Part shown: piece by piece, positions 169 through 18,207 of the stretch
Numbering within the stretch: position 1 is the stretch's first letter
Layout: the number at the start of each line of letters is the position of its first letter
Source of the DNA: Edaphobacter aggregans
Lineage (GTDB): Bacteria > Acidobacteriota > Terriglobia > Terriglobales > Acidobacteriaceae
Reading direction: 5' to 3'
NCBI RefSeq assembly: GCF_003945235.1
Contig: NZ_RSDW01000001.1
Coordinates: 1,860,001-1,892,000 of the forward strand
Length of the DNA stretch: 32,000 nucleotides
Position numbers and translations under genes: made by a program
Notes under the pieces: generated by a model
The model's database searches: none
Seen by the model: only the letters and a program-made list of their open reading frames with translations
Told to the model about the DNA's origin: nothing

Positions 169-180
169 AAGGCGAATTAT

Positions 181-918: not shown

Positions 919-957
919 CCCCAACACCAACTCAAACATTCGGAATCAAGGAGCCAC

Positions 958-1080: not shown

Positions 1081-1093
1081 CAAACAGAGAGAA

Positions 1094-2194: not shown

Positions 2195-2232
2195 TCCCAA
2201 CCCACACCTCATCCCACTCGCCGGAGCACGTC

Positions 2233-2340
2233 ATGCAGGAAAGCAAACGCAAACCCGCCCTCTCGCCCGCCGAAATCCTCGTCTTCGGAACTCTCATCGT
2301 CTATTTCACCCTCACCATCCTTCACGTTCTTCCTGTCTAG
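2233..2340 (+). CDS. Small (35 aa) single-pass membrane protein, hypothetical
   Basis: The ATG at 2233 follows GGAG with a 6-nt spacing. The product is MQESKRKPALSPAEILVFGTLIVYFTLTILHVLPV, a basic N-terminus followed by one TM helix. An in-frame alternative ATG at 2191 overlaps the yeiH stop (ATGA). Confidence 0.4.
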   Translation: MQESKRKPALSPAEILVFGTLIVYFTLTILHVLPV

Positions 2341-2646
2341 ACCAGCGATGCCAACGTCATTCCCACAAACCGGACGCCTCACCTTCGCCGAGCGCTCTGC
2401 CGCGAAGAAAAGCATCCGCGTGACCACACCCTCCCACCCGGACACTGCCGGGTTCCTCATCTTCGCGCAGTCTTATCGCGCTAAGGCGGGCATTCGCGCG
2501 ACAGCGCGAGCCGTCTTCGCCGATCCCACCACACGCTGTCGTTGTCGCCGCTAAGCGAGAACCAGCCCCCTTCCTACCCCAAAAATCTAGCCCTTGCGAC
2601 TCGCACACAAAAAGCGAGCGCCCACGCCCATCTCCCGGAGCCCCCC

Positions 2647-5600
2647 ATGCAAGACCGCACCCACACGTCCCACGCGTCCCCCATTAAACTTCTTCTCCTC
2701 AGCACCCTTCTCTTCTTCGCCCTCCGCGCACACGCTCAGGTAGTAGGCGGAACTCTCTCTGGCACCATCACCGACCCCACCGGTGCGAGCCTGACCAACG
2801 CCCAGGTCCTCGTCCACAACGACGAGACTGGCAACGAGCGCCGCCTCACCACCGGCCCCGATGGCCGCTTCTCCGCCCCCTCCATCCCTGTCGGTACCTA
2901 CACCATCACAGTCGAGCTCCCCGGCTTCGCCTCCCAACGCCGCACCGGAATCCCCCTCACCGTAGGCCAGAGCAAGCAGATCGACATCGAACTCACTGTC
3001 AACTCCGTCGATCAGCAAATCTCTGTCGAAGACACTCCCGCCGTAGTCAATCTCTCCACGCAGCAAATCTCCGGCCTCGTCGACGAGCACCAGATCAAGC
3101 AGCTTCCCCTCAACGGCCGCAGCTACGACCAACTCATCACCCTCAATCCCGCGACGGTCAACTATACCGGCCAGCGCTCCGGCTCCATCGGCACATCGAA
3201 CTCCTCCGTCGGAAACATGTTCTCCATCTCCGGCCGCCGGCCGCAGGACAATCTCTTCCTCCTCAATGGCGTCGAGTACACCGGAGCCTCCCTCATCAAC
3301 GTCACCCCCGGCGGCACCAGCGGCCAGCTCCTCGGTGTCGACGCCGTACGCGAATTCAACGTCGTCTCCGATACCTACTCCGCCGCCTACGGCAAGCGTC
3401 AGGGCGCCCAAATCTCAATCGTAACCTTATCAGGCACAAATAGCCTCCACGGCTCCGCCTACGAATTCATCCGCAACTCCGCCCTCGACGCCCGCAACTA
3501 CTTCGACCAGTCCCACATCCCCGCCTTCCAGCGCAATAACTTCGGAGGATCCCTCGGCGGCCCCATCAAGCGCGACAAGCTCTTCCTCTTCGGCAACTAT
3601 GAGGGCTATCGCCAGAACCTCGGCCTCTCCGACGTCACCCTCGTCCCCGACAACGCCAGCCGAGCCGCCGCCGTAGCCAGCGTCAAACCTCTTCTGCAAC
3701 TGTGGCCGGTACAAAATGGCCCCGAACTCGGCAGCGGCATCGCCTACGCCTACTCCAACCCTATGCAACGCATCCGCGAGGACTTCGGCACCACCCGCTT
3801 CGACTACAACATCAGCCCCAAAGACCTCTTCTTTGCCGTCTACACCATCGACGACTCCTTCGCGAATACCCCCTCCGCCAATCCCTTCTCTCTCGTCAAC
3901 GAAACCCTCCGCGAACAAGTCCTTAGCCTCCAGCACCAGCACGTCTTCTCACCCAACCTCCTCAACACCGCACGCTTCGGCTACAGCCGCGCCTCCTACT
4001 TCTTCACCGGCACCGTCCCATCTGATATCAGCGCCAACATCCCCGGCTGGGTCGCCGGCAAAACCGTAGGAGCCATCGTCATCGCCGGCTCCACCGCCTC
4101 CAACGGAGCCTCCCAGATTACCGGCGCCGGAGCCAACGTAGGCAGCAACAACACCACCGCGCGCAATCTCTTCACCTTCGACGACCACATCTTCTTCACC
4201 CGAGGCCGCCACCAGATCGAAGCCGGTGGCTGGATCCAGCGTCTCCAGTCCAACGACAACCTGGCCCAGAACCAGTACGGCCAGGCCAGCTTCTCCACCC
4301 TATCCAGCTTCCTCGCAGGAACCGTCGCAACCTTCACCGTCGTCCCCGCCCCCACCGAACTCGGCTGGCGCTCCACCGAGTACGCCGGATACCTCGAAGA
4401 CACCATCAAGCTCACCCCGCGCCTCGAACTCCGCGCCGGCTTCCGCTTCGAAGGCACCACCGGTTGGAGCGAATCGCAATCCCGCGCCGCCAACTACGCC
4501 GTCACCAATGGCGTCATCGCCACCAATCCCACCATCGGCTCCAGCGCGCTCGCCGTCAACAACGCCAAATTCCTCCCCGAACCCCGCATCGGCCTGGCAT
4601 GGGACCCCAAGGGCAACGGCCGCACCGCCTTCCGCTCCGGCTTCGGCATCCACCGCGCCCTCCTCGATAACCTCGACTACCGCCTCGACCAGGCAGCTCC
4701 CTTCAACACCACCGTCTCGGTTAAAAACGTCTCTGTCAGCGCCCTCCACTTCACCCCGACGAGCACCCCGCCCGCCGGAAGCCTCATCTCCCCCTCCAAC
4801 GTCCAACCCGACATCGACACCCCCACCGTCCTCACCTGGTACTTCAAAGTCGAGCAGCAGATCGCCCCTAACACCTCCCTCACCGTCGGCTACATCGGCT
4901 CCCATGGCTATCACCAGATCCTCTCCGAAGACCAGAACGAGCCAATCCCCGTCACCTGCCCCAACCCCGCCTGCCCCACAGTGCTCGCCGCAGGCACGGT
5001 CTACTTCCCCTCCACAGTCAAAGCCAACCCGCTCGTAGCCAACACCACCTCGTGGGTCTCCACCGGCACCAGCCTCTACAACGGCCTCACGGTCGACGTC
5101 CGCCGCAGCTTCTCCAACGGCCTCCAGTTCCGCGGAAACTACACCTGGTCCAAAAACCTCGACAACGGCTCCGCCTGGAACACCAGCGTCAGCGGCAACA
5201 CCCCCGCCTTCGTCTCGAACCCCTTCAATCCCAAAGCTGATTGGGGCCGCGCCGCCACCGACGTCCGCCACCTCGCCAGCATCAGCGGCATCTATGACCT
5301 CCCCTTCGGCCACGGAGCCCTCAGCACCTCCAACGCCTTCGCTAACCATGCCATCTCCGGCTGGACCCTCAGCTCCATCGCAGGCCTCCAGTCCGGCTTC
5401 CCCTTCACCCCTCAGCTCGGCTACAACCCCACCGGCTCCGGAGACACCCGCAACCCCGTCCGCCCCGACATCAACCCCAACTTCAAAGGCAATCTCTACC
5501 CCGGAACCCCCACGCAATACTTCAACCCCGCAGCCTTCCTGACCCCAGCCTCCGGAGCCATCGGCAACCTCGGCCGCGACACTCTCACCGGCCCCAACCT

Positions 5601-5850
5601 CATCAACCTCGACGCCTCCCTCCTCAAATCCACCCAGATCACCGAACGCCTCCGCGTCCAGTTCCGCGCCGAGTTCTTCAACGTCCTCAACCACACCAAC
5701 TTCACCACCCCGAACCCAGTCATCTACAGCTCCGGCCCAACCCCCACTACCCTCAAAGCAGCCCCGACCCTAAGCCCCACCGCCGGAGTCATCACCGCCA
5801 CATCCACCACCTCACGCCAAATCCAGTTCGGCCTAAAAATCCTCTTCTAG
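2647..5850 (+). CDS. TonB-dependent outer-membrane receptor with N-terminal carboxypeptidase-regulatory-like domain
   Basis: The start is moved to ATG 2647, which gives the signal peptide 'IKLLLLSTLLFFALRAHAQ'. The protein has a 'GTITDPTGASLTNAQVLVHNDETG...TTGPDGRFS...PVGTYTI' CarboxypepD_reg-type domain, a plug region, a long beta-barrel and a C-terminal '...QFGLKILF'. Confidence 0.9.
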   Translation: MQDRTHTSHASPIKLLLLSTLLFFALRAHAQVVGGTLSGTITDPTGASLTNAQVLVHNDETGNERRLTTGPDGRFSAPSIPVGTYTITVELPGFASQRRTGIPLTVGQSKQIDIELTVNSVDQQISVEDTPAVVNLSTQQISGLVDEHQIKQLPLNGRSYDQLITLNPATVNYTGQRSGSIGTSNSSVGNMFSISGRRPQDNLFLLNGVEYTGASLINVTPGGTSGQLLGVDAVREFNVVSDTYSAAYGKRQGAQISIVTLSGTNSLHGSAYEFIRNSALDARNYFDQSHIPAFQRNNFGGSLGGPIKRDKLFLFGNYEGYRQNLGLSDVTLVPDNASRAAAVASVKPLLQLWPVQNGPELGSGIAYAYSNPMQRIREDFGTTRFDYNISPKDLFFAVYTIDDSFANTPSANPFSLVNETLREQVLSLQHQHVFSPNLLNTARFGYSRASYFFTGTVPSDISANIPGWVAGKTVGAIVIAGSTASNGASQITGAGANVGSNNTTARNLFTFDDHIFFTRGRHQIEAGGWIQRLQSNDNLAQNQYGQASFSTLSSFLAGTVATFTVVPAPTELGWRSTEYAGYLEDTIKLTPRLELRAGFRFEGTTGWSESQSRAANYAVTNGVIATNPTIGSSALAVNNAKFLPEPRIGLAWDPKGNGRTAFRSGFGIHRALLDNLDYRLDQAAPFNTTVSVKNVSVSALHFTPTSTPPAGSLISPSNVQPDIDTPTVLTWYFKVEQQIAPNTSLTVGYIGSHGYHQILSEDQNEPIPVTCPNPACPTVLAAGTVYFPSTVKANPLVANTTSWVSTGTSLYNGLTVDVRRSFSNGLQFRGNYTWSKNLDNGSAWNTSVSGNTPAFVSNPFNPKADWGRAATDVRHLASISGIYDLPFGHGALSTSNAFANHAISGWTLSSIAGLQSGFPFTPQLGYNPTGSGDTRNPVRPDINPNFKGNLYPGTPTQYFNPAAFLTPASGAIGNLGRDTLTGPNLINLDASLLKSTQITERLRVQFRAEFFNVLNHTNFTTPNPVIYSSGPTPTTLKAAPTLSPTAGVITATSTTSRQIQFGLKILF

Positions 5851-5878
5851 AAAGTGCTATTGCTGTTGCTTTTCTCGC

Positions 5879-5915
5879 TTGTCATCCTTTGCGAAGCGGA
5901 GGATCTGCTGTTGCC
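5879..5915 (+). repeat. Dispersed intergenic hairpin repeat, copy A (ttgtcatcctttgcgaagcggaggatctgctgttgcc)
   Basis: This 37-mer matches 7655-7691 at 36 of 37 positions. The core atcctttgc-gaa-gcggaggat folds as a 9-bp stem with G.U pairs. Confidence 0.85.
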
Positions 5916-5930
5916 CTTGCATCTAGGTAA

Positions 5931-5988
5931 GCCAAGCCTTCAGGCTTGGCCCTCTCCTCGGGTCAAAAAGAAAGGGGCTTTAGCCCCT
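5931..5988 (+). repeat. Two short GC-rich hairpins in the repeat-rich spacer
   Basis: The first hairpin is gccaagcc-ttca-ggcttggc (5931-5950) and the second is aggggc-ttta-gcccct (5973-5988). Both stems are perfect. Confidence 0.6.
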
Positions 5989-6295
5989 GGAGTATGCTTT
6001 TCAGCCGAAATGAACCACAGATTTCAAACCTGTCAAGCCCCCAGAACTCGTATCTTAATATAAACAAACAAGATCGTCGTGACATATCAATTCCCTTCAA
6101 CCCGCTATACTAAAAACAGCTAAAGAAAAAGGCCCCGGCCCCCCGGGGCATTCCTATTTAGAATGAATACCTTAGCCTCAAGACATTTCAACGCAATACT
6201 TAACTAGGAAGTCCAGACCTAAAGCCTTTTATTGGAAGACTTTAGATACTTAAGTAGGGGAGGGGCACACCCCAAAGGAGCACGAAGAGGCACTC

Positions 6296-7549
6296 ATGAT
6301 CGCCGAAATCATCGCCATAGGCTCCGAGATGCTGACTCCCTTCCGTCAGGACACCAATTCCCTCTATCTCACCGAGGGCCTCAACAACCTCGGCGTCTCC
6401 GTAGCCTTCAAAACCATCATCGGCGACAACCTCGCCCAACTCACCGCCGCCGTCCGCACCGCCATCTCCCGCGCCGACATCGTCCTCTTCTCTGGAGGTC
6501 TCGGTCCCACCGAAGACGACCTCACCCGCGAAGCCGTAGCCGCCGCCCTCAACCTCGAGCTCCACCGCGACAACGACATCGTCACCGACCTCTACAAGCG
6601 CTATGCCGCCCGCAAGCTCGTCATGCCGCCCAACAACGCCAAGCAGGCCGACGTCCTCGCCGGAGCCACCGTCCTCCCAAACCCCAACGGCAGCGCCCCC
6701 GGCCAATACCTCGACACAGTAGTCGACGGACACCGCAAGATCCTCATCCTCCTACCCGGCCCCCCCAACGAGCTCAAGCCCCTCTTCGACAACCAGGCCA
6801 AGCCCCTCCTCGCTGCCACCCTCCCGCCCCGCCACCTGGCCCGCCGCCAACTCCGGATGCCCCTCATCCCCGAGTCGCAGGTCGACGCCCGTACCGCCCC
6901 CATCTACCAGCAATACTCCGACATCGAAACCACCATCCTCGCTGCCCCCGGCGAAATCCAACTCCACTTCATCACCGCCAAACCCACCCTCGCTGAAGCC
7001 CAGGCCCGCGTCGACGAGCTCACCAGCCGTATCGAAGCCGAGATGCAGGAGGACGTCTACTCCTCCCACGGCGAGAGCCTCGAAGAGGTAGTCCTCCTCA
7101 TGCTCGGCCTCCGTCACCTCACCCTCTCTGCCGCCGAAAGCTGCACCGGAGGCCTGCTCTCCCAGCGCCTCACCGCCATCGCAGGTAGCTCCCGCTACTT
7201 CCTCGGCGGAGCCGTAGTCTACTCCGACGCCCTCAAGACCTCCTTCGCCGACGTCCCCGCCGACCTCATCGCCACCCATGGCCCCGTCTCCGCCGAGGTA
7301 GCCCGCGCCCTCGCCGAAGGCATCCGCACCCGGACCGGCTCCTCCCTCGGCATCTCCATCACCGGCATCGCCGGCCCCACTCCCGGCACCGGCCCCGACG
7401 CAGAAAAACCCATTGGCCTCGTCTACGTCGCCCTCTCCGACGGCCACGACACCCAGGTCAAACAACTCAACCTATTCGGCGACCGCGAACGCATCCGCTG
7501 GTGGGCCAGCCAGCACGCCCTCGAACTAATTCGCCGCACCCTCCTCTAG
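6296..7549 (+). CDS. cinA: CinA family protein (MoCF-binding domain plus nicotinamide-nucleotide amidohydrolase PncC domain)
   Basis: The 417-aa ORF starts 'MIAEIIAIGSEML...' with 'GGLGPTEDDLTREA' in the CinA N-domain. The C-terminal 'AESCTGGLL...GGAVVYS...ISITGIAGP' is typical of the PncC domain. Confidence 0.9.
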   Translation: MIAEIIAIGSEMLTPFRQDTNSLYLTEGLNNLGVSVAFKTIIGDNLAQLTAAVRTAISRADIVLFSGGLGPTEDDLTREAVAAALNLELHRDNDIVTDLYKRYAARKLVMPPNNAKQADVLAGATVLPNPNGSAPGQYLDTVVDGHRKILILLPGPPNELKPLFDNQAKPLLAATLPPRHLARRQLRMPLIPESQVDARTAPIYQQYSDIETTILAAPGEIQLHFITAKPTLAEAQARVDELTSRIEAEMQEDVYSSHGESLEEVVLLMLGLRHLTLSAAESCTGGLLSQRLTAIAGSSRYFLGGAVVYSDALKTSFADVPADLIATHGPVSAEVARALAEGIRTRTGSSLGISITGIAGPTPGTGPDAEKPIGLVYVALSDGHDTQVKQLNLFGDRERIRWWASQHALELIRRTLL

Positions 7550-7603
7550 CAGCGGCTGCCCTTGCAGTTGTAGTGGCTGTTGGCGTTGTAGTTGCCCTTC
7601 TGG

Positions 7604-7630
7604 TTGTCATCCCGTAGGGATCTGCTTCTG
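7604..7630 (+). repeat. Truncated variant of the 'ttgtcatcc...ggatctgct' repeat
   Basis: ttgtcatcc-cgta-gggatctgcttctg keeps the outer atcc(c)/(g)ggat stem but lacks the inner gcgaagcg segment. Confidence 0.5.
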
Positions 7631-7654
7631 TCGTTGTCGTTGCCTGTTCTTCAT

Positions 7655-7691
7655 TTGTCATCCTTCGCGAAGCGGAGGATCTGCTGTTGCC
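7655..7691 (+). repeat. Dispersed intergenic hairpin repeat, copy B (ttgtcatccttcgcgaagcggaggatctgctgttgcc)
   Basis: It matches 5879-5915 at 36 of 37 positions in the same orientation. It is followed by the gcctttgcctttgcc short-period tract. Confidence 0.85.
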
Positions 7692-7758
7692 TTTGCCTTT
7701 GCCGTTCCCTCCGCTTTCCACCAGCGGAGCTCCAACTTGCTAAACTCATCCAGACGAC

Positions 7759-8370
7759 ATGAACCCCTGGCTCATCACCATCCCGCTCGCCTACCTGCTG
7801 GGCTCCATCCCATTCGGCTACGTCCTCGTCAAAATCTTCCGCAAGCAGGACATCCGAACCACCGGCAGCGGCAACATCGGAGCCACCAACGTAGCCCGCT
7901 CCGGAGCCAAGGGCCTCGGCATCGCCACGCTCATCCTCGATCTAGCGAAGGGCTACATAGCAGTCGTCATCGCCCAACACCTCGCGCCAGGGAACTACGA
8001 CCTGGCCGTAGCAGCCGCCGTAGCAGCCATCCTCGGCCACGTCTTCCCCGTCTGGCTTGCCTTCCGCGGAGGCAAAGGCGTCGCCACAGCCCTCGGAGTC
8101 TTCCTGGCTCTCAACTGGCCTAGCGCGCTCTGCACTCTCGCCGTCTTCGTCGTCGTCTTCCTGCTCACCCGCTACGTCTCACTGGCCTCAATCATCGCCG
8201 CGGCAACCTTCCCCCTCTTCGCCTTCTGGTTCGTGCCGTATAGAACCCCCATCGTCATCGCAGGCCTGCTCTTCATCCCTCTCCTGATCATCGTCAAGCA
8301 CCACCAGAACATCCGCCGTCTCCTCTCTGGTACCGAGAGTCGCTTCGGCTCCCGTAAGGTGGCCGCTTGA
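7759..8370 (+). CDS. plsY: Glycerol-3-phosphate acyltransferase PlsY
   Basis: The 203-aa membrane protein carries the 'LLGSIPFGYVL...RTTGSGNIGATNVAR' signature. Confidence 0.95.
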   Translation: MNPWLITIPLAYLLGSIPFGYVLVKIFRKQDIRTTGSGNIGATNVARSGAKGLGIATLILDLAKGYIAVVIAQHLAPGNYDLAVAAAVAAILGHVFPVWLAFRGGKGVATALGVFLALNWPSALCTLAVFVVVFLLTRYVSLASIIAAATFPLFAFWFVPYRTPIVIAGLLFIPLLIIVKHHQNIRRLLSGTESRFGSRKVAA

Positions 8371-9359
8371 GCCGAATCGCCGTCCTCGGCGCTGGAGCAT
8401 GGGGAACCGCTCTGGCCCTCTCTCTCGCACGTCGCGGCGGCCACGAGATCGTCCTCTGGTCCCACTCGCCTGAGCTCGCCGACCAGCTCACCGAAGCCGG
8501 CGAGAACCTCCGCTACCTTCCCGGCTTCACCCTTCCCGCCGACATCCACATCACCTCCGACCTTCCCGGCGCCATCTTCGAGGCAGACGTCATCCTCTGC
8601 GTCACACCGTCACAGCACCTTCGCGCCATCATCGCCAACATCGCTCCCATCCTCACCCCCAACCAGATCATCCTCTCCGCCAGCAAGGGCATCGAGGAGA
8701 ACACCTACCTCCGCATGACCCAGGTCATCGCCGCCATCACTGACAACCCCGTCGCCGTCCTCTCCGGCCCATCCTTCGCTCAGGAGGTCGCCGCCGGAAC
8801 CCCCACCGCCGTAGTCGCCGCAGCCGCTAATCCACAGATCGCCCAGACCATCCAGCGCGACTTCACCTCCGCCTCCCTCCGCCTCTACACCAACGACGAC
8901 GTGACCGGCATCGAGCTAGGCGGAGCCCTCAAGAACGTTATCGCCCTCGCCGCAGGCGTCGTCCACGGCCTCAACCTCGGCCACAACTCCTCCGCCGCTC
9001 TCATCACCCGAGGCATAGCCGAGATCACCCGTCTCGCCGTAGCCTGCGGAGGCCGCCCCCAGACCCTGGCCGGCCTCGCCGGCATCGGCGACCTCGTCCT
9101 CACCTGTACCGGCCCCCTCTCCCGCAATCGCACCGTAGGCGTCGAGCTAGGCCGCGGCCGTCAGCTCCCCGAGATCATCGCCAGCCTCAACGGCAAAGTC
9201 GCCGAAGGCATCCGCAGCACCACCGCCGCCCTCGGCCTGGCCGCCCGCTACAGCGTCGAGATGCCAATCACCGAGCAGATGGACGCCATCCTCCACCACA
9301 ACAAAAATCCCCGTGAAGCTATCCGCGACCTCATGTCCCGCCCCGGCCGCGACGAATAG
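8367..9359 (+). CDS. gpsA: NAD(P)H-dependent glycerol-3-phosphate dehydrogenase GpsA
   Basis: The 330-aa ORF has 'IAVLGAGAWGTALA', 'GPSFAQEVA' and 'GGALKNVIALAAG'. Its TTG start overlaps the plsY stop (cTTGAg). Confidence 0.95.
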   Translation: MSRIAVLGAGAWGTALALSLARRGGHEIVLWSHSPELADQLTEAGENLRYLPGFTLPADIHITSDLPGAIFEADVILCVTPSQHLRAIIANIAPILTPNQIILSASKGIEENTYLRMTQVIAAITDNPVAVLSGPSFAQEVAAGTPTAVVAAAANPQIAQTIQRDFTSASLRLYTNDDVTGIELGGALKNVIALAAGVVHGLNLGHNSSAALITRGIAEITRLAVACGGRPQTLAGLAGIGDLVLTCTGPLSRNRTVGVELGRGRQLPEIIASLNGKVAEGIRSTTAALGLAARYSVEMPITEQMDAILHHNKNPREAIRDLMSRPGRDE

Positions 9360-9362
9360 CCC

Positions 9363-9569
9363 TCAGGCAAACTTCATCTCCTCAATCAGCGGAGGCCGCT
9401 GATCAAAATCGCTATACCGAATCCACCTCACGGGAAAATAAGGCGAGATGCGGGGTCTCTTCCACTCCGCAACGGACGATAAAGCTGTCCATCGCTCCGG
9501 TCCAGATGACGAAAGTTTCAGGGGGTAGAACAAGACCAACGGCAAGAGCGGCCGGGAGAGTATATACAT
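9363..9569 (-). CDS. Doubtful small ORF (68 aa from the internal ATG; 82 aa in the ORF track), hypothetical
   Basis: AAGGTGG lies just upstream of ATG 9569. There is no family resemblance, the W/R/P-rich composition is atypical, and the ORF contains a strong hairpin (atcagcgg-agg-ccgctgat, about 9385-9403). It may simply be non-coding spacer. Confidence 0.2.
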   Translation of the reverse strand: MYILSRPLLPLVLFYPLKLSSSGPERWTALSSVAEWKRPRISPYFPVRWIRYSDFDQRPPLIEEMKFA

Positions 9570-9645
9570 CGCCACCTTAGGCGTGATGAAACTGCGTCTG
9601 AGATGGTGCACCCGTGCGTTCGAGATATATGGATAGAGAGATGCG

Positions 9646-9686
9646 AAAGGCGTGAAGTCGTTTGGACTCCACGCCTTTTTGATTTG
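9646..9686. terminator. Strong hairpin terminator (bidirectional candidate) downstream of the M61 peptidase gene
   Basis: aaaggcgtg (9646-9654) pairs with cacgccttt (9670-9678), extended by an inner agtc/gact stem. The + strand has the T-tract tttttgattt. The - strand has a partial U-tract from the gaaagg complement. Confidence 0.6.
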
Positions 9687-9715
9687 GTTAGGCTAGTTCG
9701 TTTGCTTTTGCGAGG

Positions 9716-11632
9716 CTACTCCGATTTCGCCGTTGTGGCGGGAGCTTTCTCGGGAGTGGTTAGGGGCTTGGTAATGTCGTCGAGGTAGGCTGGAGTTCCT
9801 TCTACGCGGACGAGGGAGGGGTAGCGTTCGCCGTCGTGGTAGTCGATGTCGGCGAGGGTGACGAAGGTGTCGGATTGGAGGATGAAGTGGATGGGTTCGG
9901 TCTTGCCCTTAGCGTTTTTGATGGCAGCTTTGAGGGCGTCGGCGGAGAAGACGCGGCCGTCGACGGCGATGATCTTCTGGCCGGGGGCTAGCTTGGCTTT
10001 GTCGGCCGGACCGGACCAGCGGACGTCAGAGATGACGCCTTCGGCGCTGACGCGCAGGCCGAGGGAGTACCAGACGTTGAGACCTCCGCGGCGTGGGCCG
10101 CCTGCCATGGCCATGGTGCGTTCGGAGACGCTGGGCTTGTCGGTGAAGACCAGCTTGTAGCCACCGCGCTCGATACCGCTAAGGTCAGCGTGAGGATTGG
10201 GGTTGTCGATGCGCTCGTGCATGAAGGTGGCCCAGTCGTAGGGAAGAACCTGGTTGAGGTCACGGATGAGCTCGTCGCGGTTGTAGGTGAGGATGGAGGG
10301 ACCGGTGTTTCCGCCCTGAGCGAGGAAGATGTGCAGGAAGTCGGTGAGGGACTTCTTGTTCTCGGTCTTCTGGCGGATGAGGGTGTCGGCGTCGAGCCAG
10401 AAGAGCTCGCCCTCCTGGTAGTAGTCCTGTCCGCGCTTCCAGTTGGACCAGGCAGGGTTGCCGCCGCGAAGGATACTGGCGGCGATGGCGGTGTCTTCGG
10501 TGGAGCGCCACTCACGGCCGGGCTTGTAGTCGAGGTTGGCGGCGGACATGGCGAGCATATCGCGGTACTGGGCCTGGTTCTTGAGGCCAGAGCGAGCGGC
10601 GAGGACGTTGCCGAGGTACTGGGTCATGCCCTCGTAGACCCAGAGGAGGGAGCCCTCCTGCATTTTGGCGAAGTCGGTCTGGTAGAGGTTGTAGGGGCGG
10701 CGGTATTTGCCGTTCCAGGAGTGGGTGAACTCGTGGGAGAGTAGGTCAGCTTCGGCGAGCTGGTGGGCGTCGTCGGAGAAGCCTTTTTCGCCCACGCCGT
10801 TGTCGGAGGACTGGCCGTGCTCGAGGCCTTCGCCGCCAGCGACGTCGGAGAGGGTGAGGAGGAAGTGATAGACGTTGTAGTGGCGGGAGTTGTAGGCGGC
10901 TCCGGTCTCGCGGACGAGGTTGGAGAGTTGGGTGAGGAGCGTGGGGCGAAGTTCAGCGTCTTCAGGAGCGTCGGCGACTACGTCGATGAAGTGCTTGGGG
11001 GTGACTTCGGGGGCCAAGGCGAACTCATGGAAGTACTCGCCGGTGATGACGGGGGAGTCCTGGAGCTGTTCGACGTTGGTGGCGGCGAAGTGCGTAGTGC
11101 CGCCTTTGGGATGCTGCGGGTCGTAGCCGTCGGTTGGGGTGAGGGCTGTCCCGATGCCCCATCCTTCGGGGACGGTGACGGAGGGTTGGACTGCGATCTC
11201 TTTGACGGGGGTATTGGCCGGGTAGAGGAGGAGCTTTTCCCACTCGAGGACGGCGAGCTTCTGGCTCACGCGGGCGGTAACGATGCAGTCGAGGTGAGCG
11301 TGGAGGGTGGTGACTCCGGCGGGGACGGTGACGTGGAACTGGTAGAGGTCGGTGTCGTCGCGGCGCCAGGGGAGGGTTTGGCCGTTTGCGGTGAAGACTA
11401 CGCCGGTGATGTCATCGACAGGGCCGGTGGGGCGGTGGTTACCGGGGATCCACTTTGGGGTGGTGAGGGAGACGGGGCCGGGTTTGACGGGGACGTCGAT
11501 CTCGGCGTGGTAGAGCTTGCGCGGGGCGTCGGAGAGGTCGGCAGTAATCTGGATGGGGGCTTTTTGGGCTTGTAGCAGAGCGGGGGCAGTGAGAAAGAGG
11601 GTTAGAGGCAGGACGGACTTGCGGATGAACAT
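9716..11632 (-). CDS. M61 family glycyl aminopeptidase with C-terminal PDZ domain
   Basis: The zinc motif 'HEFTHSWNGKYRRP' and a C-terminal PDZ-like segment ('GLRVSAEGVISDVRWSGPADKAKLAPGQKIIAVDG') are present. The start is moved to ATG 11632, which gives the signal peptide 'MFIRKSVLPLTLFLTAPALLQAQ'. Confidence 0.9.
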   Translation of the reverse strand: MFIRKSVLPLTLFLTAPALLQAQKAPIQITADLSDAPRKLYHAEIDVPVKPGPVSLTTPKWIPGNHRPTGPVDDITGVVFTANGQTLPWRRDDTDLYQFHVTVPAGVTTLHAHLDCIVTARVSQKLAVLEWEKLLLYPANTPVKEIAVQPSVTVPEGWGIGTALTPTDGYDPQHPKGGTTHFAATNVEQLQDSPVITGEYFHEFALAPEVTPKHFIDVVADAPEDAELRPTLLTQLSNLVRETGAAYNSRHYNVYHFLLTLSDVAGGEGLEHGQSSDNGVGEKGFSDDAHQLAEADLLSHEFTHSWNGKYRRPYNLYQTDFAKMQEGSLLWVYEGMTQYLGNVLAARSGLKNQAQYRDMLAMSAANLDYKPGREWRSTEDTAIAASILRGGNPAWSNWKRGQDYYQEGELFWLDADTLIRQKTENKKSLTDFLHIFLAQGGNTGPSILTYNRDELIRDLNQVLPYDWATFMHERIDNPNPHADLSGIERGGYKLVFTDKPSVSERTMAMAGGPRRGGLNVWYSLGLRVSAEGVISDVRWSGPADKAKLAPGQKIIAVDGRVFSADALKAAIKNAKGKTEPIHFILQSDTFVTLADIDYHDGERYPSLVRVEGTPAYLDDITKPLTTPEKAPATTAKSE

Positions 11633-11728
11633 GTTGGGTGGTCCTTTGAGGTTGGCTGGATTTCTATGAGACGGATGAGCGGGGGATGGGGACGCAGGCG
11701 GCTTGGTCTCGCGCTGCATCCCGCGTGA

Positions 11729-12295
11729 TTAGTAGTTGAGGGCTGATTCGATGGCGGCGACTACAGAGGGGTCGTCGGGGGTGACCTCGGGGGAGAAGCG
11801 GGCTACTACGTTGCCGTTGCGGTCGACCAGGAACTTTTCGAAGTTCCAGAGGATGCCGGGTTCGGGGTTGGTGGTGGCTCCGTTGTGTTTGCCGTGGAGG
11901 AAGCCGTTGAGGCGCTCGCGGAAGGTTTCGCGCGTGGGGCCGGTGGCTTTGGGCTGGGCGGCGATGAGGGTCTGGTAGAGGGGATGGGTGTCGGGGCCGG
12001 TGACGGGGATTTTGGAGAACATGGGGAAGTCGACGGCGAAGGTGCCGGTGCAAAACTTGAAGATCTCCTGGTTGGAGCCGGGCTCCTGCGCGCCGAAGTC
12101 GTTGGCGGGGAAGCCGCAGACGACCAGGCCGGAGCCTTTGAAGCGGGAGTAGAGTTTTTCGAGGGCGTCGTACTGCGGGGTGAGGCCGCATTGGGAGGCT
12201 ACGTTGACGATGAGGAGGACTTTGCCTCGGTAGTCGGCGAGGGAGGTACCTTCTCCGGTGATGGTCTGGACGGGGATGTCGTAGAGGTTGGACAT
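11729..12295 (-). CDS. Glutathione peroxidase (Cys-type)
   Basis: The 188-aa ORF has 'LIVNVASQCGLTPQY', 'FPANDFGAQEPG' and 'WNFEKFLVDRNG', the classic GPx motifs with Cys at the redox position. Confidence 0.9.
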   Translation of the reverse strand: MSNLYDIPVQTITGEGTSLADYRGKVLLIVNVASQCGLTPQYDALEKLYSRFKGSGLVVCGFPANDFGAQEPGSNQEIFKFCTGTFAVDFPMFSKIPVTGPDTHPLYQTLIAAQPKATGPTRETFRERLNGFLHGKHNGATTNPEPGILWNFEKFLVDRNGNVVARFSPEVTPDDPSVVAAIESALNY

Positions 12296-12346
12296 AGTAA
12301 TTTCCAGTGTATCGCTACGGATTCTTTATGCGGCGGTGGGTAGGAT

Positions 12347-14227
12347 GTGGCTGCTATGTCGATAAGCGACTTTCTGTTTGGCCGGCCTTTGGCGACGAGT
12401 GAGGAGAGAGCTGAGCATATTGGCGTTGCGGCAGGGATCCCGGTGTTTGGGCTGGATGCCCTGACGAGCGCAGCATATGGGCCGGAGGCAGCGATGACGC
12501 TGCTGATTCCGCTGGGGTTGATGGGGCGGAACTATATCCTTCCGGTGATTGTGGCGATAGTTGGGCTGTTGGTGATTGTGTTCTTCAGCTACAGGCAGAC
12601 GATTGACGCGTATCCGAATGGTGGTGGGTCGTACACGGTAGCGAGTGAGAACCTGGGAAATCGTGCGGGGCTGTTGGCGGCGGCGGCGCTGATGATCGAC
12701 TATGTGCTGACGGCGGCGGTGGGGATCTCGGCAGGCGTGGGGGCGCTGATTTCGGCGGTGCCTAGTTTGCAGCCGCATACGCTGGTGCTGTGCCTCGTCA
12801 TTCTGGCGCTATTGGCGATGGTTAATATGCGTGGCGTCAGAGATACGGGCGCGGTGTTCATGATTCCGACGGTTCTGTTTATTGGAACGCTGTCGATCAT
12901 GGTGGCGGTGGGGGTATGGCGCGCGATGCAGAGTGGAGGGCATCCGGTTCCGTTGGTTGCTCCTCCGCCGGCGTTACCAGCGACGGTGGAGTTGCTGAGG
13001 TGGTGGCTGCTGGCGAAGGTGTTTGCAAGCGGATGTACGGCGATGACGGGCGTGGAGGCGGTTTCGAACGGGGTGATGGCGTTCAGTGAGCCGAAGACGA
13101 AACGTGCGAAGCAGACGCTGACGGTGATTATTGCGATTCTTATTGTGCTGCTGCTGGGGGTTGCGTATCTGTCGAAGGCGTATGGGATCACGGCGACCGA
13201 TCCGGGAGCGAACGGCTATCAGAGTGTGCTGAGCATGCTGGTGGCGGCGGTCTTTGGGAGGGGCTGGTTCTATCAGCTGACGATGGCGTCAGTGTTGTCG
13301 GCACTGGCGCTGAGTGCGAATACGGCGTTTGCGGATTTTCCGCGACTGACCCGGATGATCGCGATGCATGATTATCTGCCGCATGTTTTTTTGTTGCGCG
13401 GGCGGAGGCTGCTGTACTCGCATGGAGTTTATGCGCTGACCGGATTGACGGCGGTGCTGTTGATTTTGTTTGGTGGCGTGACGGACAACCTGATTCCCCT
13501 ATTTGCGATTGGGGCGTTTTTGGCGTTTACGCTTTCGCAGGCGGGAATGGTGGTGCATTGGTACAAGCAGGGACCGGAGCATCCGCGGCGCGGCTGGCAC
13601 ATGTTTGTGAATGGGCTGGGTGCGGTGGCGACGGGTATTACGCTGCTGGTGGTGCTGGTGGCGAAGTTTATGGCGGGGGCGTGGGTGACGGCGTTGCTGG
13701 TGCCGGTGTTGATGGGCATTATGGTGGCGGTGAAGCGGCATTACACGCGGGTGAAGGGCGAGATGGCTGAGCAGTGTCCGCTAAACCTGACGAATCTGGA
13801 GCAGCCGATTGTGGTGATCCCGATGGCGCGATGGGACAAGATCTCTGAGAAGGCGATGCGGTTTGGGCTGCTGATGTCGAAGGAGATCAAGGTGGTGCAT
13901 GTCCACTCGGATGATGAGCGGGAGGGGCTGGAGGAGGTTTGGAATGAGACGATATTAGGGCCGATCAAGGGTCAGGAGCTTGAGGAGCCGGAGTTGGTGA
14001 CGATTCCGTCGAACTATCGGTTCATCCTCGCGCCGTTGATGGACTACATCCTGGAGTTGGAGAAGGAGAATCCGGGGCGAAAGGTGGCGGTACTGTTGCC
14101 GGAGATGGTGGTGAAGCACTGGTGGGAGAACGCACTGCATAACCAGAGGGTGCAGCTGCTGAAACTGATGCTGCTGCTGAAGGGGAATCAGCGGATTGTG
14201 GTGGTGAATATCCCTTGGTACTTGTGA
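12347..14227 (+). CDS. APC-superfamily permease fused to a roughly 190-aa C-terminal cytoplasmic domain (paralog 1)
   Basis: The 626-aa ORF has an N-terminal 'GRPLATSEERAEHIGVAAGIPVFGLDALTSAAYGPEAA', about 12 TM segments, and a soluble tail '...VVIPMARWDKISEKAMRFG...LPEMVVKHWWENALHNQR...'. The start is GTG 12347 or ATG 12356. Confidence 0.85.
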   Translation: MAAMSISDFLFGRPLATSEERAEHIGVAAGIPVFGLDALTSAAYGPEAAMTLLIPLGLMGRNYILPVIVAIVGLLVIVFFSYRQTIDAYPNGGGSYTVASENLGNRAGLLAAAALMIDYVLTAAVGISAGVGALISAVPSLQPHTLVLCLVILALLAMVNMRGVRDTGAVFMIPTVLFIGTLSIMVAVGVWRAMQSGGHPVPLVAPPPALPATVELLRWWLLAKVFASGCTAMTGVEAVSNGVMAFSEPKTKRAKQTLTVIIAILIVLLLGVAYLSKAYGITATDPGANGYQSVLSMLVAAVFGRGWFYQLTMASVLSALALSANTAFADFPRLTRMIAMHDYLPHVFLLRGRRLLYSHGVYALTGLTAVLLILFGGVTDNLIPLFAIGAFLAFTLSQAGMVVHWYKQGPEHPRRGWHMFVNGLGAVATGITLLVVLVAKFMAGAWVTALLVPVLMGIMVAVKRHYTRVKGEMAEQCPLNLTNLEQPIVVIPMARWDKISEKAMRFGLLMSKEIKVVHVHSDDEREGLEEVWNETILGPIKGQELEEPELVTIPSNYRFILAPLMDYILELEKENPGRKVAVLLPEMVVKHWWENALHNQRVQLLKLMLLLKGNQRIVVVNIPWYL

Positions 14228-14292
14228 ACGGGGGTGCAAAAGACAGGGATTCATGGAGTTCAGACGATGGAACAATTAGTATCAAAAGAAAT

Positions 14293-16161
14293 ATGTCTAT
14301 TGTTGATCGTCTGGTTGGGAAGCCGTTAGCTACGAGCGAAGAGCGGGCCGAGCACATCGGTGTGGCCGCAGGAATTCCGATATTTGGTTTAGATGGGCTG
14401 ACGAGCGCAGCGTACGGGCCCGAAGCTGCGATGACGTTGTTGATTCCGTTGGGGATAGCCGGCGTTGAATATGGGTGGCGGATCATCTCGGCGATTTTGG
14501 TGCTGTTGACGATCGTTTATTTCAGCTACCGGCAGACGATTGAGGCGTATCCGAGCGGCGGTGGGAGCTATACGGTCGCTACGGAAAATCTGGGCGAGAA
14601 GTCGGGGCTGCTGGCAGCGGCGGCGCTGATGATCGACTACATTCTGACGGCTGCGGTGGGAATTTCGGCTGGTGTTACAGCGCTGACCTCGGCGGTTCCG
14701 AGTTTGCAGCGTCATACGTTGCTGATATGTCTGGTGATTCTTGCGCTGCTGGCTATTGTGAATCTGCGGGGCGTTAAGGATACGGGGACGGCGTTTATTC
14801 TGCCGACGTTTCTATTTGTGGGCACGTTGCTGGCGTTGATTGGGGTCGGCATGTGGAAGACGGTGCATGCTGGAGGGCATCCGATGCCGGTGGATCCGAT
14901 TCCTCCTGCGCTGCCTGCGACGGTGGGATCGCTCGGAATATGGATGTTGATGAAGTCCTTTGCGAGCGGCTGCGCGGCGATGACGGGCGTGGAGGCTGTA
15001 TCGAACGGGGTGATGGCCTTCGGCGAGCCCAGGGTGAAGAGAGCACAGCGCGCGCTGACGATAATCATTGGGATCCTCATGGTGCTGCTGTTCGGGATTG
15101 CATACCTGTCGAAGGTTTACAGGATCATGCCGATGGAGCCCGAGGGAACGGGCTATCAGAGCTTGATCAGCTTGTTGGTAACGGCGGTATTTGGCCGTGG
15201 TTGGTTTTATTACACGACGATGGGCAGCGTGCTGCTTGCGTTGGCTTTGAGCGCGAATACGGCGTTTGCGGATTTCCCTCGACTGACGCGCGCGATTGCG
15301 ATGCATGACTACCTTCCTCATGTGTTCATTCTGCGTGGGCGGCGGCTGCTTTATTCGCATGGAATCTATGCGCTGACTGGGTTTACTGCAGTGATCCTGA
15401 TCCTGTTCGGTGGTGTGACGGATCGATTGATTCCGCTGTATGCGATTGGGGCTTTTATGGCGTTCACGCTTTCGCAGGCGGGGATGGTGGTGCATTGGCA
15501 CAGGATGGAGAAGCATCCAGGGCGGCGGATTCGCCTGGTGGTGAACGGCTTTGGCGCGGTTGCGACGGGCATCACGTTGGTAGTGGTGCTGGTGGCGAAG
15601 TTCGTGGCTGGAGCGTGGGTGACGGCTCTGCTTGTGCCGATACTGATCGGCATCATGATGGCTGTAAAACGGCACTACTCAAGGGTGAAGCGGGAGATGA
15701 AGGACATGACTCCGCTGAACCTGGTGAATCTGCAGGAACCAATTGTGGTGATTCCGATGGCTCGGTGGGACCGGATTACGGAGAAGGCGATGCGGTTCGG
15801 GCTGCTGATGTCGAAGGAGATCAAGGTGGTGCACGTGCACTCGGATGATGAGGAGGAGGGTCTGGATGAGGTGTGGGATGACAAGATCCTACAGCCGATC
15901 AAGAGTGAGGGATTGCATGAGCCGGAGCTGGTGGTGATTCCTTCGTCGTACCGGTTCATTATTAATCCGCTGATGGATTACATTCTGGAGTTGGAGAAGG
16001 AGAATCCGGGACGGAAGGTGGCGGTGCTGCTGCCGGAGCTTGTGGTGCGGCATTGGTGGGAGAATGCGCTGCATAATCAGCGAGTTCAGCTGTTGAAGCT
16101 GTTTCTGCTGCTGAAGGGGAACCAGCGGATTGTGGTGGTTAATATTCCGTGGTATTTGTGA
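14293..16161 (+). CDS. APC-superfamily permease fused to a roughly 190-aa C-terminal cytoplasmic domain (paralog 2)
   Basis: It is collinear with paralog 1 over the full length, with near-identical blocks such as 'FASGC.AMTGVEAVSNGVMAF' and 'NPGRKVAVLLPE.VV.HWWENALHNQRVQLLK'. The start is moved to ATG 14293 ('MSIVDRLVGKPLATSEER') by alignment with paralog 1. Confidence 0.85.
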   Translation: MSIVDRLVGKPLATSEERAEHIGVAAGIPIFGLDGLTSAAYGPEAAMTLLIPLGIAGVEYGWRIISAILVLLTIVYFSYRQTIEAYPSGGGSYTVATENLGEKSGLLAAAALMIDYILTAAVGISAGVTALTSAVPSLQRHTLLICLVILALLAIVNLRGVKDTGTAFILPTFLFVGTLLALIGVGMWKTVHAGGHPMPVDPIPPALPATVGSLGIWMLMKSFASGCAAMTGVEAVSNGVMAFGEPRVKRAQRALTIIIGILMVLLFGIAYLSKVYRIMPMEPEGTGYQSLISLLVTAVFGRGWFYYTTMGSVLLALALSANTAFADFPRLTRAIAMHDYLPHVFILRGRRLLYSHGIYALTGFTAVILILFGGVTDRLIPLYAIGAFMAFTLSQAGMVVHWHRMEKHPGRRIRLVVNGFGAVATGITLVVVLVAKFVAGAWVTALLVPILIGIMMAVKRHYSRVKREMKDMTPLNLVNLQEPIVVIPMARWDRITEKAMRFGLLMSKEIKVVHVHSDDEEEGLDEVWDDKILQPIKSEGLHEPELVVIPSSYRFIINPLMDYILELEKENPGRKVAVLLPELVVRHWWENALHNQRVQLLKLFLLLKGNQRIVVVNIPWYL

Positions 16162-16241
16162 GTTTTTTTTGCCCCCGATTTCCAGCGAAAATGGTGGATA
16201 TATGGCGGTTTTTGCTGGTTAGCTGATGGAAAAAAGCGTGG

Positions 16242-16271
16242 AAATGCCGGTCAACTGACCGGCATTTTTTG
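16242..16271. terminator. Bidirectional rho-independent terminator between convergent genes
   Basis: aaatgccggtc-aact-gaccggcattt is a perfect stem flanked by an A-tract upstream and tttttgt downstream. Confidence 0.75.
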
Positions 16272-16288
16272 TCCTCAGAACGGGGGTC

Positions 16289-17494
16289 TCAGGCTTCTGT
16301 AGCGACTGCGTGCTGCTGCCAGGTGGGGGAGAGCTCGCGGAGGTGAGCTACGGCGGTTGGGATGAGTTCGAGAGCGTGGTCTACTTCCTCTTCGGTGGTG
16401 AGTTTGGAGAGGGAGAAGCGGATGCTGGCTCGGGCTCGGTTGGAGCTTAGGCCCATCGCAGTGAGGACGTGGGAGGGCTCGGTGGCTCCGGACTGGCAGG
16501 CGCTGCCTCCGCTGACGGAGAGTCCTTTGAGGTCAAGGGCTATGACGAGGGCTTCGGCTTCGATGTGGTCGAAGTAGATGTTTGTGGTGTTGGCTACGCG
16601 TGGCGCTCCACCGCCGTTGACGCCAGCTTCGGGGACCTGGGCGAGGATGCCTTGTTCGAGGCGGTCGCGGAGGGCGGCTAGTTTGGCGGGGCCTTCGGTG
16701 GCGAGCCACTGCTGGGCGATTTCGGCGGCTTTGCCAAGGCCTACGATGCCGGCTACGTTTTCGGTTCCGGCGCGGCGCTGACGCTCGTGGGAGCCGCCGT
16801 GCATCATCGGGTTGAGACGGACGTTGCGGCGGACGAAGAGGATGCCGATGCCTTTGGGAGCGTGCATCTTGTGGCCGGAGATGGTGAGGAGATCGACGTC
16901 CTTGAGGGGGCCGTGGGGGCCGAGGTCGAGGGGGAGCTTGCCAGCGGCCTGGACGGCGTCGGTGTGGAAGAGGGCTCCGGCGGCGTGGGCGATGGCGGCG
17001 AGCGCGGCGATGGGCTGGACGACGCCAGTCTCGTTGTTCGCGAACATGACGCTGACGAGCTTGGTGTTGGGGCGGATGGCTCCGATGAGCTCAGCCGGTT
17101 CGATGATGCCTTGTGCGGTGCAGGGGAGGAAGGTTACGTCGATATTGCGGTGCTCGAGCGACTCTGCGGCGTGGAGAATGGCGTGGTGCTCGATGCTGGT
17201 GGTAATGACGTGGGTCTTCTCTTTGGTGGGAGAGAGCTCGGAGGTGAGGGTGCCGAAGAGGGCGAGGTTGTCGCTTTCGGTGCCGCCGGAGGTGAAGACG
17301 ATCTCGGAGGCGCGGCAGTGGAACAGGCGGGCGATGGCGTCGCGGGCGTGGTCGACGGCGGCGCGGGCGTGCTGGCCGTGCTGGTGGATGGAGCTGGCGT
17401 TGCCGAAGTGTTCGATCCAGAAGGGACGCATGGCCTCGTAAACCTCTGGGAGGAGAGGCGTGGTGGCGTTAGCGTCCATGTAAATACGCTGCAT
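16289..17494 (-). CDS. Cysteine desulfurase (NifS/IscS-type class V aminotransferase)
   Basis: The 401-aa ORF has 'IYMDANATTP', 'FTSGGTESDN', 'SGHKMHAPKGIG' (PLP lysine) and 'SGGSACQSG' (catalytic Cys loop). Confidence 0.9.
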   Translation of the reverse strand: MQRIYMDANATTPLLPEVYEAMRPFWIEHFGNASSIHQHGQHARAAVDHARDAIARLFHCRASEIVFTSGGTESDNLALFGTLTSELSPTKEKTHVITTSIEHHAILHAAESLEHRNIDVTFLPCTAQGIIEPAELIGAIRPNTKLVSVMFANNETGVVQPIAALAAIAHAAGALFHTDAVQAAGKLPLDLGPHGPLKDVDLLTISGHKMHAPKGIGILFVRRNVRLNPMMHGGSHERQRRAGTENVAGIVGLGKAAEIAQQWLATEGPAKLAALRDRLEQGILAQVPEAGVNGGGAPRVANTTNIYFDHIEAEALVIALDLKGLSVSGGSACQSGATEPSHVLTAMGLSSNRARASIRFSLSKLTTEEEVDHALELIPTAVAHLRELSPTWQQHAVATEA

Positions 17495-17607
17495 AGCTCT
17501 ATTTTACCCTGTCTATTGTGACGAATGAGGGGGCGACGGATTGAAGAACTCTGTTAGGCTGGGCGCGGTTATCCGGTTTTCCGAGAAACGAACAGGAGAG
17601 AACGACG

Positions 17608-18192
17608 ATGATAAAGCAGATAGTTATGACGTTGGCGCTGGCTGCTTGTTGCGTGACGGGAGCGCGGGCGCAGATGAACAATGCGACTCCGAAGGCTGAT
17701 CCAGGTGCGGTGGTTGATCCTTCTAAATCACTTAGTGCGCTGCTGAAGATTTATGAAGACGAGATGATGGGCCTGGTGAATGCCATGCCCGCGGACAAAT
17801 ATAGCTTCGCGCCAAGCCAGGCGATCTTCAAGCCCGAGCAGGTGACAAAGTATGACGGAGTGCGGACGTTTGGGCAGATGGTTGGGCATGTGGCGCAGGC
17901 GAACTACTACTTCTATGGCTCGTTGGGCGGAGCAAAGCCTGATGTGGATGTGAAGGCGATTGGGAGCATGACGTCCAAGGAGGATCTGGTGAAGGCACTG
18001 GCGGCTTCGTTTGCTTATGCCCACAAACAGATTGATACGATGACGGCGGCGAATGCGTTTGCTTCGGTGAAGGGTGACCAGACGAATACGAGTATGGTGG
18101 CGTTTGGCATCGCGCATGGCTTCGACCACTATGGGCAGCTGGCTGAGTATCTGCGGATGAATGGGATTGTGCCTCCGGCGAGTGCGAAGTAG
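17608..18192 (+). CDS. DinB-family (DinB_2-like) protein with signal peptide
   Basis: AGGAGAG lies upstream of the ATG. The signal peptide is 'MIKQIVMTLALAACCVTGARAQ'. His-containing motifs 'GHVAQANYYF' and 'HGFDHYGQLAEYLR' are typical of the DinB four-helix-bundle family. Confidence 0.75.
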   Translation: MIKQIVMTLALAACCVTGARAQMNNATPKADPGAVVDPSKSLSALLKIYEDEMMGLVNAMPADKYSFAPSQAIFKPEQVTKYDGVRTFGQMVGHVAQANYYFYGSLGGAKPDVDVKAIGSMTSKEDLVKALAASFAYAHKQIDTMTAANAFASVKGDQTNTSMVAFGIAHGFDHYGQLAEYLRMNGIVPPASAK

Positions 18193-18207
18193 GCTTAGTT
18201 CGGCGTG

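Follow-up and report, generated by a model that had tools for sequence, protein, structure and literature searches.

The abrupt change of sign in GC skew at position 9431 of the window, the whole 32-kb stretch of Edaphobacter aggregans DNA analysed here, very probably marks one junction of a recent inversion within a single replichore of an E. aggregans-type chromosome. It is neither a replication origin nor a terminus. The inversion is an ordinary kind of event, conspicuous through the extreme skew of this Edaphobacter clade. Judged from gene order and composition, a single inversion of roughly 31 kb would explain everything seen at the site. The coordinates of the features are collected in Table 1.

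Table 1. Position, strand and character of the features in the window, counted from its first nucleotide.
Feature	Position	Strand	Remarks
Left arm	1..9430		C-rich on + strand, skew about -0.32; gene order: SnoaL-like (-), YeiH-like (+), CarboxypepD_reg/OMP beta-barrel receptor (+), cinA (+), plsY (+), gpsA (+)
gpsA, NAD-dependent glycerol-3-phosphate dehydrogenase	8367..9359	+	Pfam PF01210, PF07479
PNPOx-family (PPOX-class) gene remnant	9363..9429	-	last ~22 codons (...PVRWIRYSDFDQRPPLIEEMKFA) and stop
Putative rearrangement junction, coinciding with skew change-point	9430..9451		homology end 9429, change-point 9431
REP-like dispersed intergenic element, M61 side	9452..9512	-	GTCATC...GGAGCGATGGAC type; copies in L011, L021, L009
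M61-side intergenic DNA with AT-rich patches	9513..9650		no homolog detected in loci or metagenome contigs
M61 intrinsic terminator hairpin	9651..9687	-	-23.2 kcal/mol, z = -5.4
M61 glycyl aminopeptidase, intact	9716..11719	-	Pfam PF05299, PF17899
Right arm	9431..32000		G-rich on + strand; gene order: M61 (-), GPx (-), two permeases (+), class-V aminotransferase, AT5 (-), DinB (+), DUF1214/1254 (-), hyp (-), citrate synthase (-), DAO (-), hyp (+), thiolase (+), hyp (-), serine dehydratase, SDH (-), YjbR (-), ComM/YifB (+), hyp (-), rho (+)
rho, 5' part, running past the right end of the window	31100..32000	+	TIGR00767, 523.8 bits

On the + strand, GC skew was about -0.32 over positions 1-9430 and +0.27 to +0.32 over 9431-32000, corresponding to G/(G+C) values of 0.338 and 0.636. 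When calculated per 1 kb, it ranged from -0.20 to -0.41 up to position 9500 and lay mostly between +0.25 and +0.45 thereafter, with three stretches (18-20, 26-27 and 30.5-32 kb) in which it approached 0. A skew model with two segments was favoured over one with a single segment (2*dLL = 1474). By maximum likelihood, the change-point was located at 9431 (support interval 9418-9521), which is identical to the minimum of cumulative G-C within the 32-kb window. The initial annotation had placed the flip between the stop codons of gpsA (9357-9359) and M61 (9716-9718), and the change-point falls there. The base counts quoted in that annotation were exact (5401-5460, 32 C and 10 G; 301-360, 22 C and 15 G; 13621-13680, 29 G and 10 C; 21601-21660, 27 G and 14 C), and the spacer between both genes is indeed lower in GC, with 52.5% vs ~60% in the flanks.

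The skew was also correctly described as independent of gene orientation, since whole-gene and third-position values agree with the arm and not with the coding strand. In the right arm, genes on the + and - strands alike have a whole-gene skew of ~+0.3, measured on the + strand. Third-codon-position skew has the sign of its arm in every gene, regardless of gene strand. Values in the left arm were -0.63 to -0.76 in five of the six genes and -0.38 in the SnoaL-like (-) gene; those in the right arm were +0.45 to +0.83, mostly above +0.5, in all genes but one, the DUF1214/1254 gene (18365-19927), for which +0.10 was obtained. Skew at codon positions 1 and 2 tracks the coding strand. AT skew and GC skew have opposite signs, the G-rich strand being rich in T as well. 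The asymmetry is the classical strand-wide, mutation-driven pattern of the replication type. Within this Edaphobacter clade, the G:C ratio at third codon positions is ~85:15, equivalent to a skew of ~0.7, and near-zero skew occurs in some other Acidobacteriaceae. SkewDB (PMC8941118) gives a typical skew of 'around 2.5%'; by that figure, the skew of the window is roughly ten times larger.

Gene order was compared with 85 loci of relatives (designated L followed by a number), 80 of which are GpsA loci. The GpsA relatives all belong to the Acidobacteriaceae (Edaphobacter, Tunturiibacter, Granulicella and Terracidiphilus). The order cinA-plsY-gpsA is syntenic in nearly all of the 80 GpsA loci, about 46 of which carry ftsY downstream of gpsA, on the same strand and at a distance of at most 5 kb. 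Between gpsA and ftsY, a ketopantoate-reductase-like gene and/or a convergent PNPOx-family gene of 143-150 aa is sometimes present. In the window, gpsA is the last intact gene left of the junction and encodes a protein 96% identical to that of L001; ftsY is absent from the 32 kb.

The initial annotation had offered an inversion breakpoint as the third of its options, beside origin and terminus, and had proposed a synteny comparison with relatives. This comparison was run and supported an inversion: two right-arm blocks are reversed relative to gpsA. Order and orientation in the right arm were compared across ten loci (L004, L005, L007, L014, L019, L025, L049, L056, L082 and L083). Downstream of gpsA, seven of these (L004, L007, L014, L019, L025, L049 and L056) carry rho(-), ComM(-), YjbR(+) and SDH(+), which is the block at 26.6-32 kb of the window with order and orientation reversed. 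Moving away from gpsA, L005 carries DinB(-), AT5(+) and permease(-), corresponding to 12.3-18.2 kb of the window, again reversed. L083 is collinear with the window from 9.7 to 24 kb. The 112-aa ORF at 31312-31650(-) was discarded as an antisense artefact within rho.

The inverted block starts with M61, whose product is 100% identical to an NCBI protein of E. aggregans. In relatives, M61 is followed by an alpha-beta hydrolase gene, ahead of which stands YcxB in L084 and a bestrophin-like gene in L082. The block after M61 in L084 also includes a beta-lactamase. The M61 protein of L084 is 97% identical to that of the window, and its ancestral neighbours have been kept. In L085 (96% identical), two co-directional unannotated genes follow M61, not gpsA; L083 (95% identical) ends ~550 nt past M61, without homology to the spacer of the window. 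The C-terminal tail of M61 varies naturally across relatives. A gpsA gene adjoining M61 was not seen in any relative's locus examined, and the gpsA/M61 junction thus appears, by this comparison of gene neighbourhoods, specific to the window's own lineage.

The spacer itself (9360-9715) can be divided into parts belonging to either side. Next to gpsA, a remnant of a PNPOx-family gene was identified, 52 nt of which are 96% identical to L001 11998-12049; it also matches L018 and L002. Intact orthologs of 143-150 aa (Pfam PF01243) are located at L001 11980-12411(-) and L018 11011-11463(-). The remainder of the gene was not found elsewhere in the 32-kb window; the gene is thus truncated, probably by the rearrangement. 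Its homology breaks off at 9429, within two bases of the skew change-point at 9431.

On the M61 side, the junction is followed by the REP-like element. Shorter GTCATCC...AGGATC elements, their relatedness being judged by eye, occur in the same orientation after the M61 terminator in L083 and L084, and also in the window at 5879-5920 and 7655-7696, flanking cinA. Predicted folding of the REP-like element was no better than that of shuffled sequence (z = +0.20 and -0.25). For the adjacent DNA at 9513-9650, no homolog was detectable among the relatives' loci or metagenome contigs; the AT-rich patches noted in the initial annotation lie within this part. Of the two strong hairpins reported there, that at 9651-9687 was significant, and the one proximal to gpsA was not (z = -0.9). 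The significant hairpin is the M61 terminator, which has A/T runs on both sides and is potentially bidirectional. In L081-L084, an equivalent hairpin is found 20-30 nt from the M61 stop codon. No long inverted repeats able to mediate inversion were found at the junction. Searches of the metagenome contigs with an exact 22-mer spanning the junction, and with an exact 22-mer from the M61 side of the spacer, gave no match.

The rearrangement may be pictured as follows. The ancestral order would have been gpsA(+), PNPOx-family gene (-), ftsY(+) and, after further genes, rho(-), ComM(-), YjbR(+), SDH(+) and, after others, CS(+). Further on would have come DinB(-), AT5(+), permease(s)(-), GPx(+), M61(+), the REP-like element and YcxB/alpha-beta hydrolase (+). 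This ancestral block would have lain wholly on one replication arm and would have shown one uniform, very strong skew. One break would have occurred inside the PNPOx-family gene and the other just past the REP-like element downstream of M61. With the ends rejoined in inverted order, the M61 end of the block would have come to abut the 3' remnant (22 codons) of the PNPOx-family gene beside gpsA. The inverted block would have carried its own strand composition along, giving the switch from C-rich to G-rich exactly at 9431. One such inversion, from the middle of the PNPOx-family gene to past the REP-like element of M61, would reproduce the order M61...DinB...citrate synthase...SDH...rho. The other junction is predicted to lie ~8 kb beyond the window, and the segment to measure ~31 kb, because the spacing from gpsA to rho in L004 is 8.2 kb. 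At this reciprocal junction, the 5' part of the PNPOx-family gene and an inverted ftsY should be found beside YcxB/hydrolase. The break may have arisen by illegitimate recombination at or near the REP-like element, which may have had a causal role. Genes converging at a site of origin-type polarity are what would be expected if two blocks had originally been collinear, each with the majority of its genes on the C-rich strand, and one of them had been flipped.

The composition of both arms is that of their counterparts elsewhere. Skew is uniformly negative over gpsA +-10 kb in the closest relatives (L001, L003, L004, L009, L011 and others) and uniform across the M61 block in L082 and L083. The sense strands of M61 and gpsA are C-rich in the window and likewise in L082/L083/L084 and L001. 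Since the skew of each arm equals that of the orthologous DNA in relatives, the flip was probably inherited through rearrangement and not built in place. Outgroup-polarised substitutions were tried as a measure of lineage-specific erosion and rejected, the same common-to-rare excess appearing in both sister branches as a parsimony artefact; an outgroup-free comparison of aligned sites was used in their place. In this comparison, the difference in G-C count between the window and its closest relatives was -44 +- 42 for the right arm and -31 +- 36 for the left arm. Only M61, beside the junction, showed a skew deficit relative to relatives, at ~2 sigma. A misoriented block with a third-position skew of ~0.7 should erode quickly. 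Given such a skew and no erosion relative to genomes 8-12% divergent, the inversion would be very recent. The ~2 sigma erosion in M61 is a hint, and the sole clue, as to which arm is misoriented. A family-wide test of gene preference for the C-rich strand was set aside as confounded, all loci representing the same gpsA neighbourhood.

Several other explanations of the flip were weighed against this inversion. An oriC in the gpsA/M61 spacer is effectively refuted. Under the standard rule, the leading strand is the G-rich one, and the C-to-G change along the + strand is, as the initial annotation recognized, of origin-type polarity. Like a bacterial oriC, the site is a local minimum of cumulative skew in a lower-GC intergenic region. 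The spacer holds short AT-rich patches, with no extended AT-rich tract visible, and the three weak DnaA-like 9-mers described earlier are present at 9419-9427, 9458-9466 and 9628-9636, the last being the best (7/9). However, DnaA boxes (TTATCCACA-like, at most one mismatch) numbered four in 32 kb vs 2.9 expected, none of them in 9360-9715; no 600-bp window held three or more. As the initial annotation had noted, dnaA and dnaN are lacking: no such Pfam match was obtained in the window, and tblastn with an E. coli DnaA query, a moderately strong negative, found no dnaA in the window or in the 85 loci. Promoter and terminator scans of the window revealed nothing origin-like. A gene remnant, the REP-like element, unassigned intergenic DNA and a terminator together make up the whole spacer, and the flip is absent at the same locus in close relatives. 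The genes converge on the site, and with an origin here ~70% of the genes on both sides would run head-on to replication. A terminus, the second option, shares the convergent genes and the sign change of skew with XerC/D dif regions but would require the opposite polarity, from G to C, and a 28-bp dif-like site. Such 28-bp dif sequences have been predicted for Acidobacteria (Kono et al. 2011; PMC3025954). With these predictions and the E. coli and B. subtilis/Firmicutes sites (PMC3025954) as references, the best arm match in the window was 16/22, at chance level and inside a gene at 1212; nothing was found in the spacer, in keeping with the lack of a dif arm reported initially, nor in L081-L084. 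A further reading holds that the flip is a present global skew extremum and thus a functional replichore boundary, for example with the far end of an inversion at the true terminus or origin region. Strong flips are rare in relatives, which leaves the prior for an origin or terminus not negligible, and uneroded arms would also be expected if both were still replicated in the old direction. We nevertheless regard this as highly improbable: the polarity is of the origin type yet the origin features are missing, and those of a terminus, polarity and dif, are missing as well. In addition, 8 of the 10 loci with a rho gene have it on the G-rich strand, which fits the standard polarity of a G-rich leading strand, and a young junction absent from relatives cannot be a conserved replication landmark.

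It is improbable, though slightly less so than a replichore boundary, that the deposited 6.15-Mb contig contains a misoriented segment or a chimeric join at 9431 and that the real chromosome is ancestral and collinear. The junction was seen neither in strains whose M61 is 95-97% identical nor in metagenome contigs or any other sequence, and the absence of arm-wide skew erosion would be expected of an event with zero age; published 'complete' genomes with misoriented segments have been detected through their skew by SkewIT (PMC7717575). Here, however, the join interrupts a unique gene and is flanked by a 60-nt element, with no long repeat at the junction, and the ~140 nt of unique intergenic DNA (9513-9650), unlike that of all relatives, suggests a distinct lineage history. 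Assembly mis-joins normally occur at long repeats, and one within a unique gene would be unusual. The ~2 sigma skew erosion of M61, if real, would moreover require elapsed time. That the right arm was instead acquired horizontally, as an island placed beside gpsA in opposite orientation, has hardly any probability. The compositional boundary is abrupt and the DUF1214/1254 gene is atypical in its third-position skew, but the arm carries core genes (rho, citrate synthase, serine dehydratase, ComM) that many relatives have in the same neighbourhood downstream of gpsA, in inverted arrangement. The arm agrees with the host genome in skew magnitude and GC content, and the window yielded no integrase or other mobile-element gene in the Pfam search and no tRNA or Rfam family. 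A programmed invertible segment was rejected, as there is no recombinase, a gene has been destroyed and the block consists of core genes.

The inversion favoured here resembles known intra-replichore inversions, such as those treated in SkewIT (PMC7717575), which shows GC-skew plots to be visibly disturbed by inversions, and in genometric assembly checks (PMC1285363). The sign of the skew changes at a synteny breakpoint, the blocks keep their inherited composition, and flipping one of them back restores both collinearity and uniform skew. It differs from them in that one of the two junctions is visible within the 32-kb window, and in that the break occurred inside a gene and beside a REP-like element and not in rRNA operons or IS copies. 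It also differs in its skew, which at ~10x the 'typical 2.5%' of SkewDB (PMC8941118) makes even a ~31-kb inversion conspicuous. As with REP/BIME repeats, a dispersed intergenic element of ~60 nt directly abuts the junction; in contrast to them, folding predictions gave no significant hairpin for the element, and a RAYT-type transposase was not observed in the window. Literature searches on acidobacterial skew anomalies and on the genome description of E. aggregans returned nothing specific.

The interval downstream of gpsA is repeatedly rearranged in the Acidobacteriaceae, with skew tracking orientation each time. Differing local rearrangements were observed in the window, L002, L010, L036/L046 and L051, the last with yet another arrangement. 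In four relatives (L002, L046, L036 and L010), an inverted ftsY coincides with opposite or changing skew. Clear cases are L002, in which skew is positive over the inverted ftsY and negative after it, and L046, in which ftsY starts at ~12,070 and the flip lies at 12,000; in L036 the change is more gradual, and in L010 the link is weak. Strong two-sided skew flips numbered two in about 0.73 Mb of loci, one of them being that of the window. We propose, tentatively and with more doubt than belief, that this interval is a recurrent REP-associated hotspot, that the strong asymmetry of the clade makes inversions both visible and datable, and that the ~31-kb block of E. aggregans now stands against its own composition.

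For genome scans, the site carries a caution: what looks like a textbook skew switch of the origin type can be no more than a scar left by a small inversion, and synteny with relatives resolves such a case quickly. For E. aggregans, it flags a position in the assembly worth checking against reads. If real, a very young inversion has destroyed a PNPOx-family gene and reversed ~20 genes, including rho. Should the tentative proposal above hold, each inversion in the interval would be visible and, in principle, datable from skew erosion. Replication of the ~31-kb block with rho and citrate synthase would then run counter to the block's composition and to the orientation of its genes, a natural experiment on head-on replication-transcription conflicts. 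By its size, the strand asymmetry of this clade invites study of changes in replication or repair.

The strain whose M61 glycyl aminopeptidase is 97% identical to that of the window carries a C-to-G skew flip of its own in the compared locus (L084), at ~7800-8300, ~6 kb downstream of M61. At this position GC falls to 0.47-0.55 and synteny with the M61 locus L081 ends; neither a dif site nor a DnaA-box cluster was found there.

Within the window, the SnoaL-YeiH-OMP block (1-5850) adjoins cinA, an arrangement seen in none of the compared loci, and ~5850-6026 is therefore a second synteny break, which is not accompanied by a skew flip. The gene cinA lies between two REP-like direct repeats of sequence TTGTCATCCTT[T/C]GCGAAGCGGAGGATCTGCTGTTGCC, whose general type is that of the dispersed element at the probable inversion junction. 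The same genes are rearranged differently in L002, a 10.2-kb Edaphobacter MAG contig, with the order ftsY (-), plsY and gpsA (+), a fragmented PNPOx-family gene, then SnoaL, YeiH and OMP; its skew changes from + to - at ~1400. Either this arrangement requires more than one event, or the contig may be chimeric. In L001, the closest relative, ~5 kb (4164-9393) is inserted between cinA and plsY, and a ketopantoate-reductase-like (ApbA/PanE) gene (11050-11973) is located between gpsA and the PNPOx-family gene. This ApbA-like gene is common to L001, L004, L005, L006 and L011.

Coordinates of the features in the window, with strand and remarks
Feature	Position	Strand	Remarks
Direct repeats, 42 nt, two copies	5879-5920 and 7655-7696		95% identical; either side of cinA
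Amino-acid permease genes, tandem pair	12347-14227 and 14215-16161	+	74-77% DNA identity to each other
DUF1214/DUF1254 gene	18365-19927	-	Third-position GC skew only +0.10
ORF	24717-25997	-	Rejected; shadow of thiolase gene
Thiolase gene	24882-26084	+	
rho	~31100-32000	+	Incomplete; extends past window end
ORF, 112 aa	31312-31650	-	Rejected; antisense shadow of rho

Two permease genes are present in L082, as in the window, and only one is shown by L083 and L085. In L083, the place of the DUF1214/DUF1254 gene is taken by two others, a Formyl_trans_N gene and a hypothetical one. The AT3 skew of the DUF1214/DUF1254 gene is opposite in sign to that of its neighbours, and the gene probably represents a recent replacement or horizontal acquisition. 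The skew dip of the window at 18-20 kb is due to the presence of this atypical gene.

On each arm of the window, and likewise in L082 and L083, ~70% of the genes are carried by the C-rich strand, a figure that describes these neighbourhoods and carries no information on the genome as a whole, as all loci represent the same ones. The C-rich strand is presumably the lagging strand. The rho gene is located on the G-rich strand; cut off by the window end, it did not figure among the listed ORFs, and the small ORF antisense to it had seemed 95-98% conserved across genera.

Third-codon-position GC skew in the window is extreme, at approximately ±0.5 to 0.8, with G:C near 85:15. Whole-sequence skew is 0.2-0.4 in many Edaphobacter/Tunturiibacter-like relatives among loci L001-L085, whereas it is near zero in the loci of Granulicella mallensis, G. 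rosea and Terracidiphilus. No report of this strand asymmetry was found in the literature searched. The pattern points to a change, specific to the lineage, in mutation or repair associated with replication.
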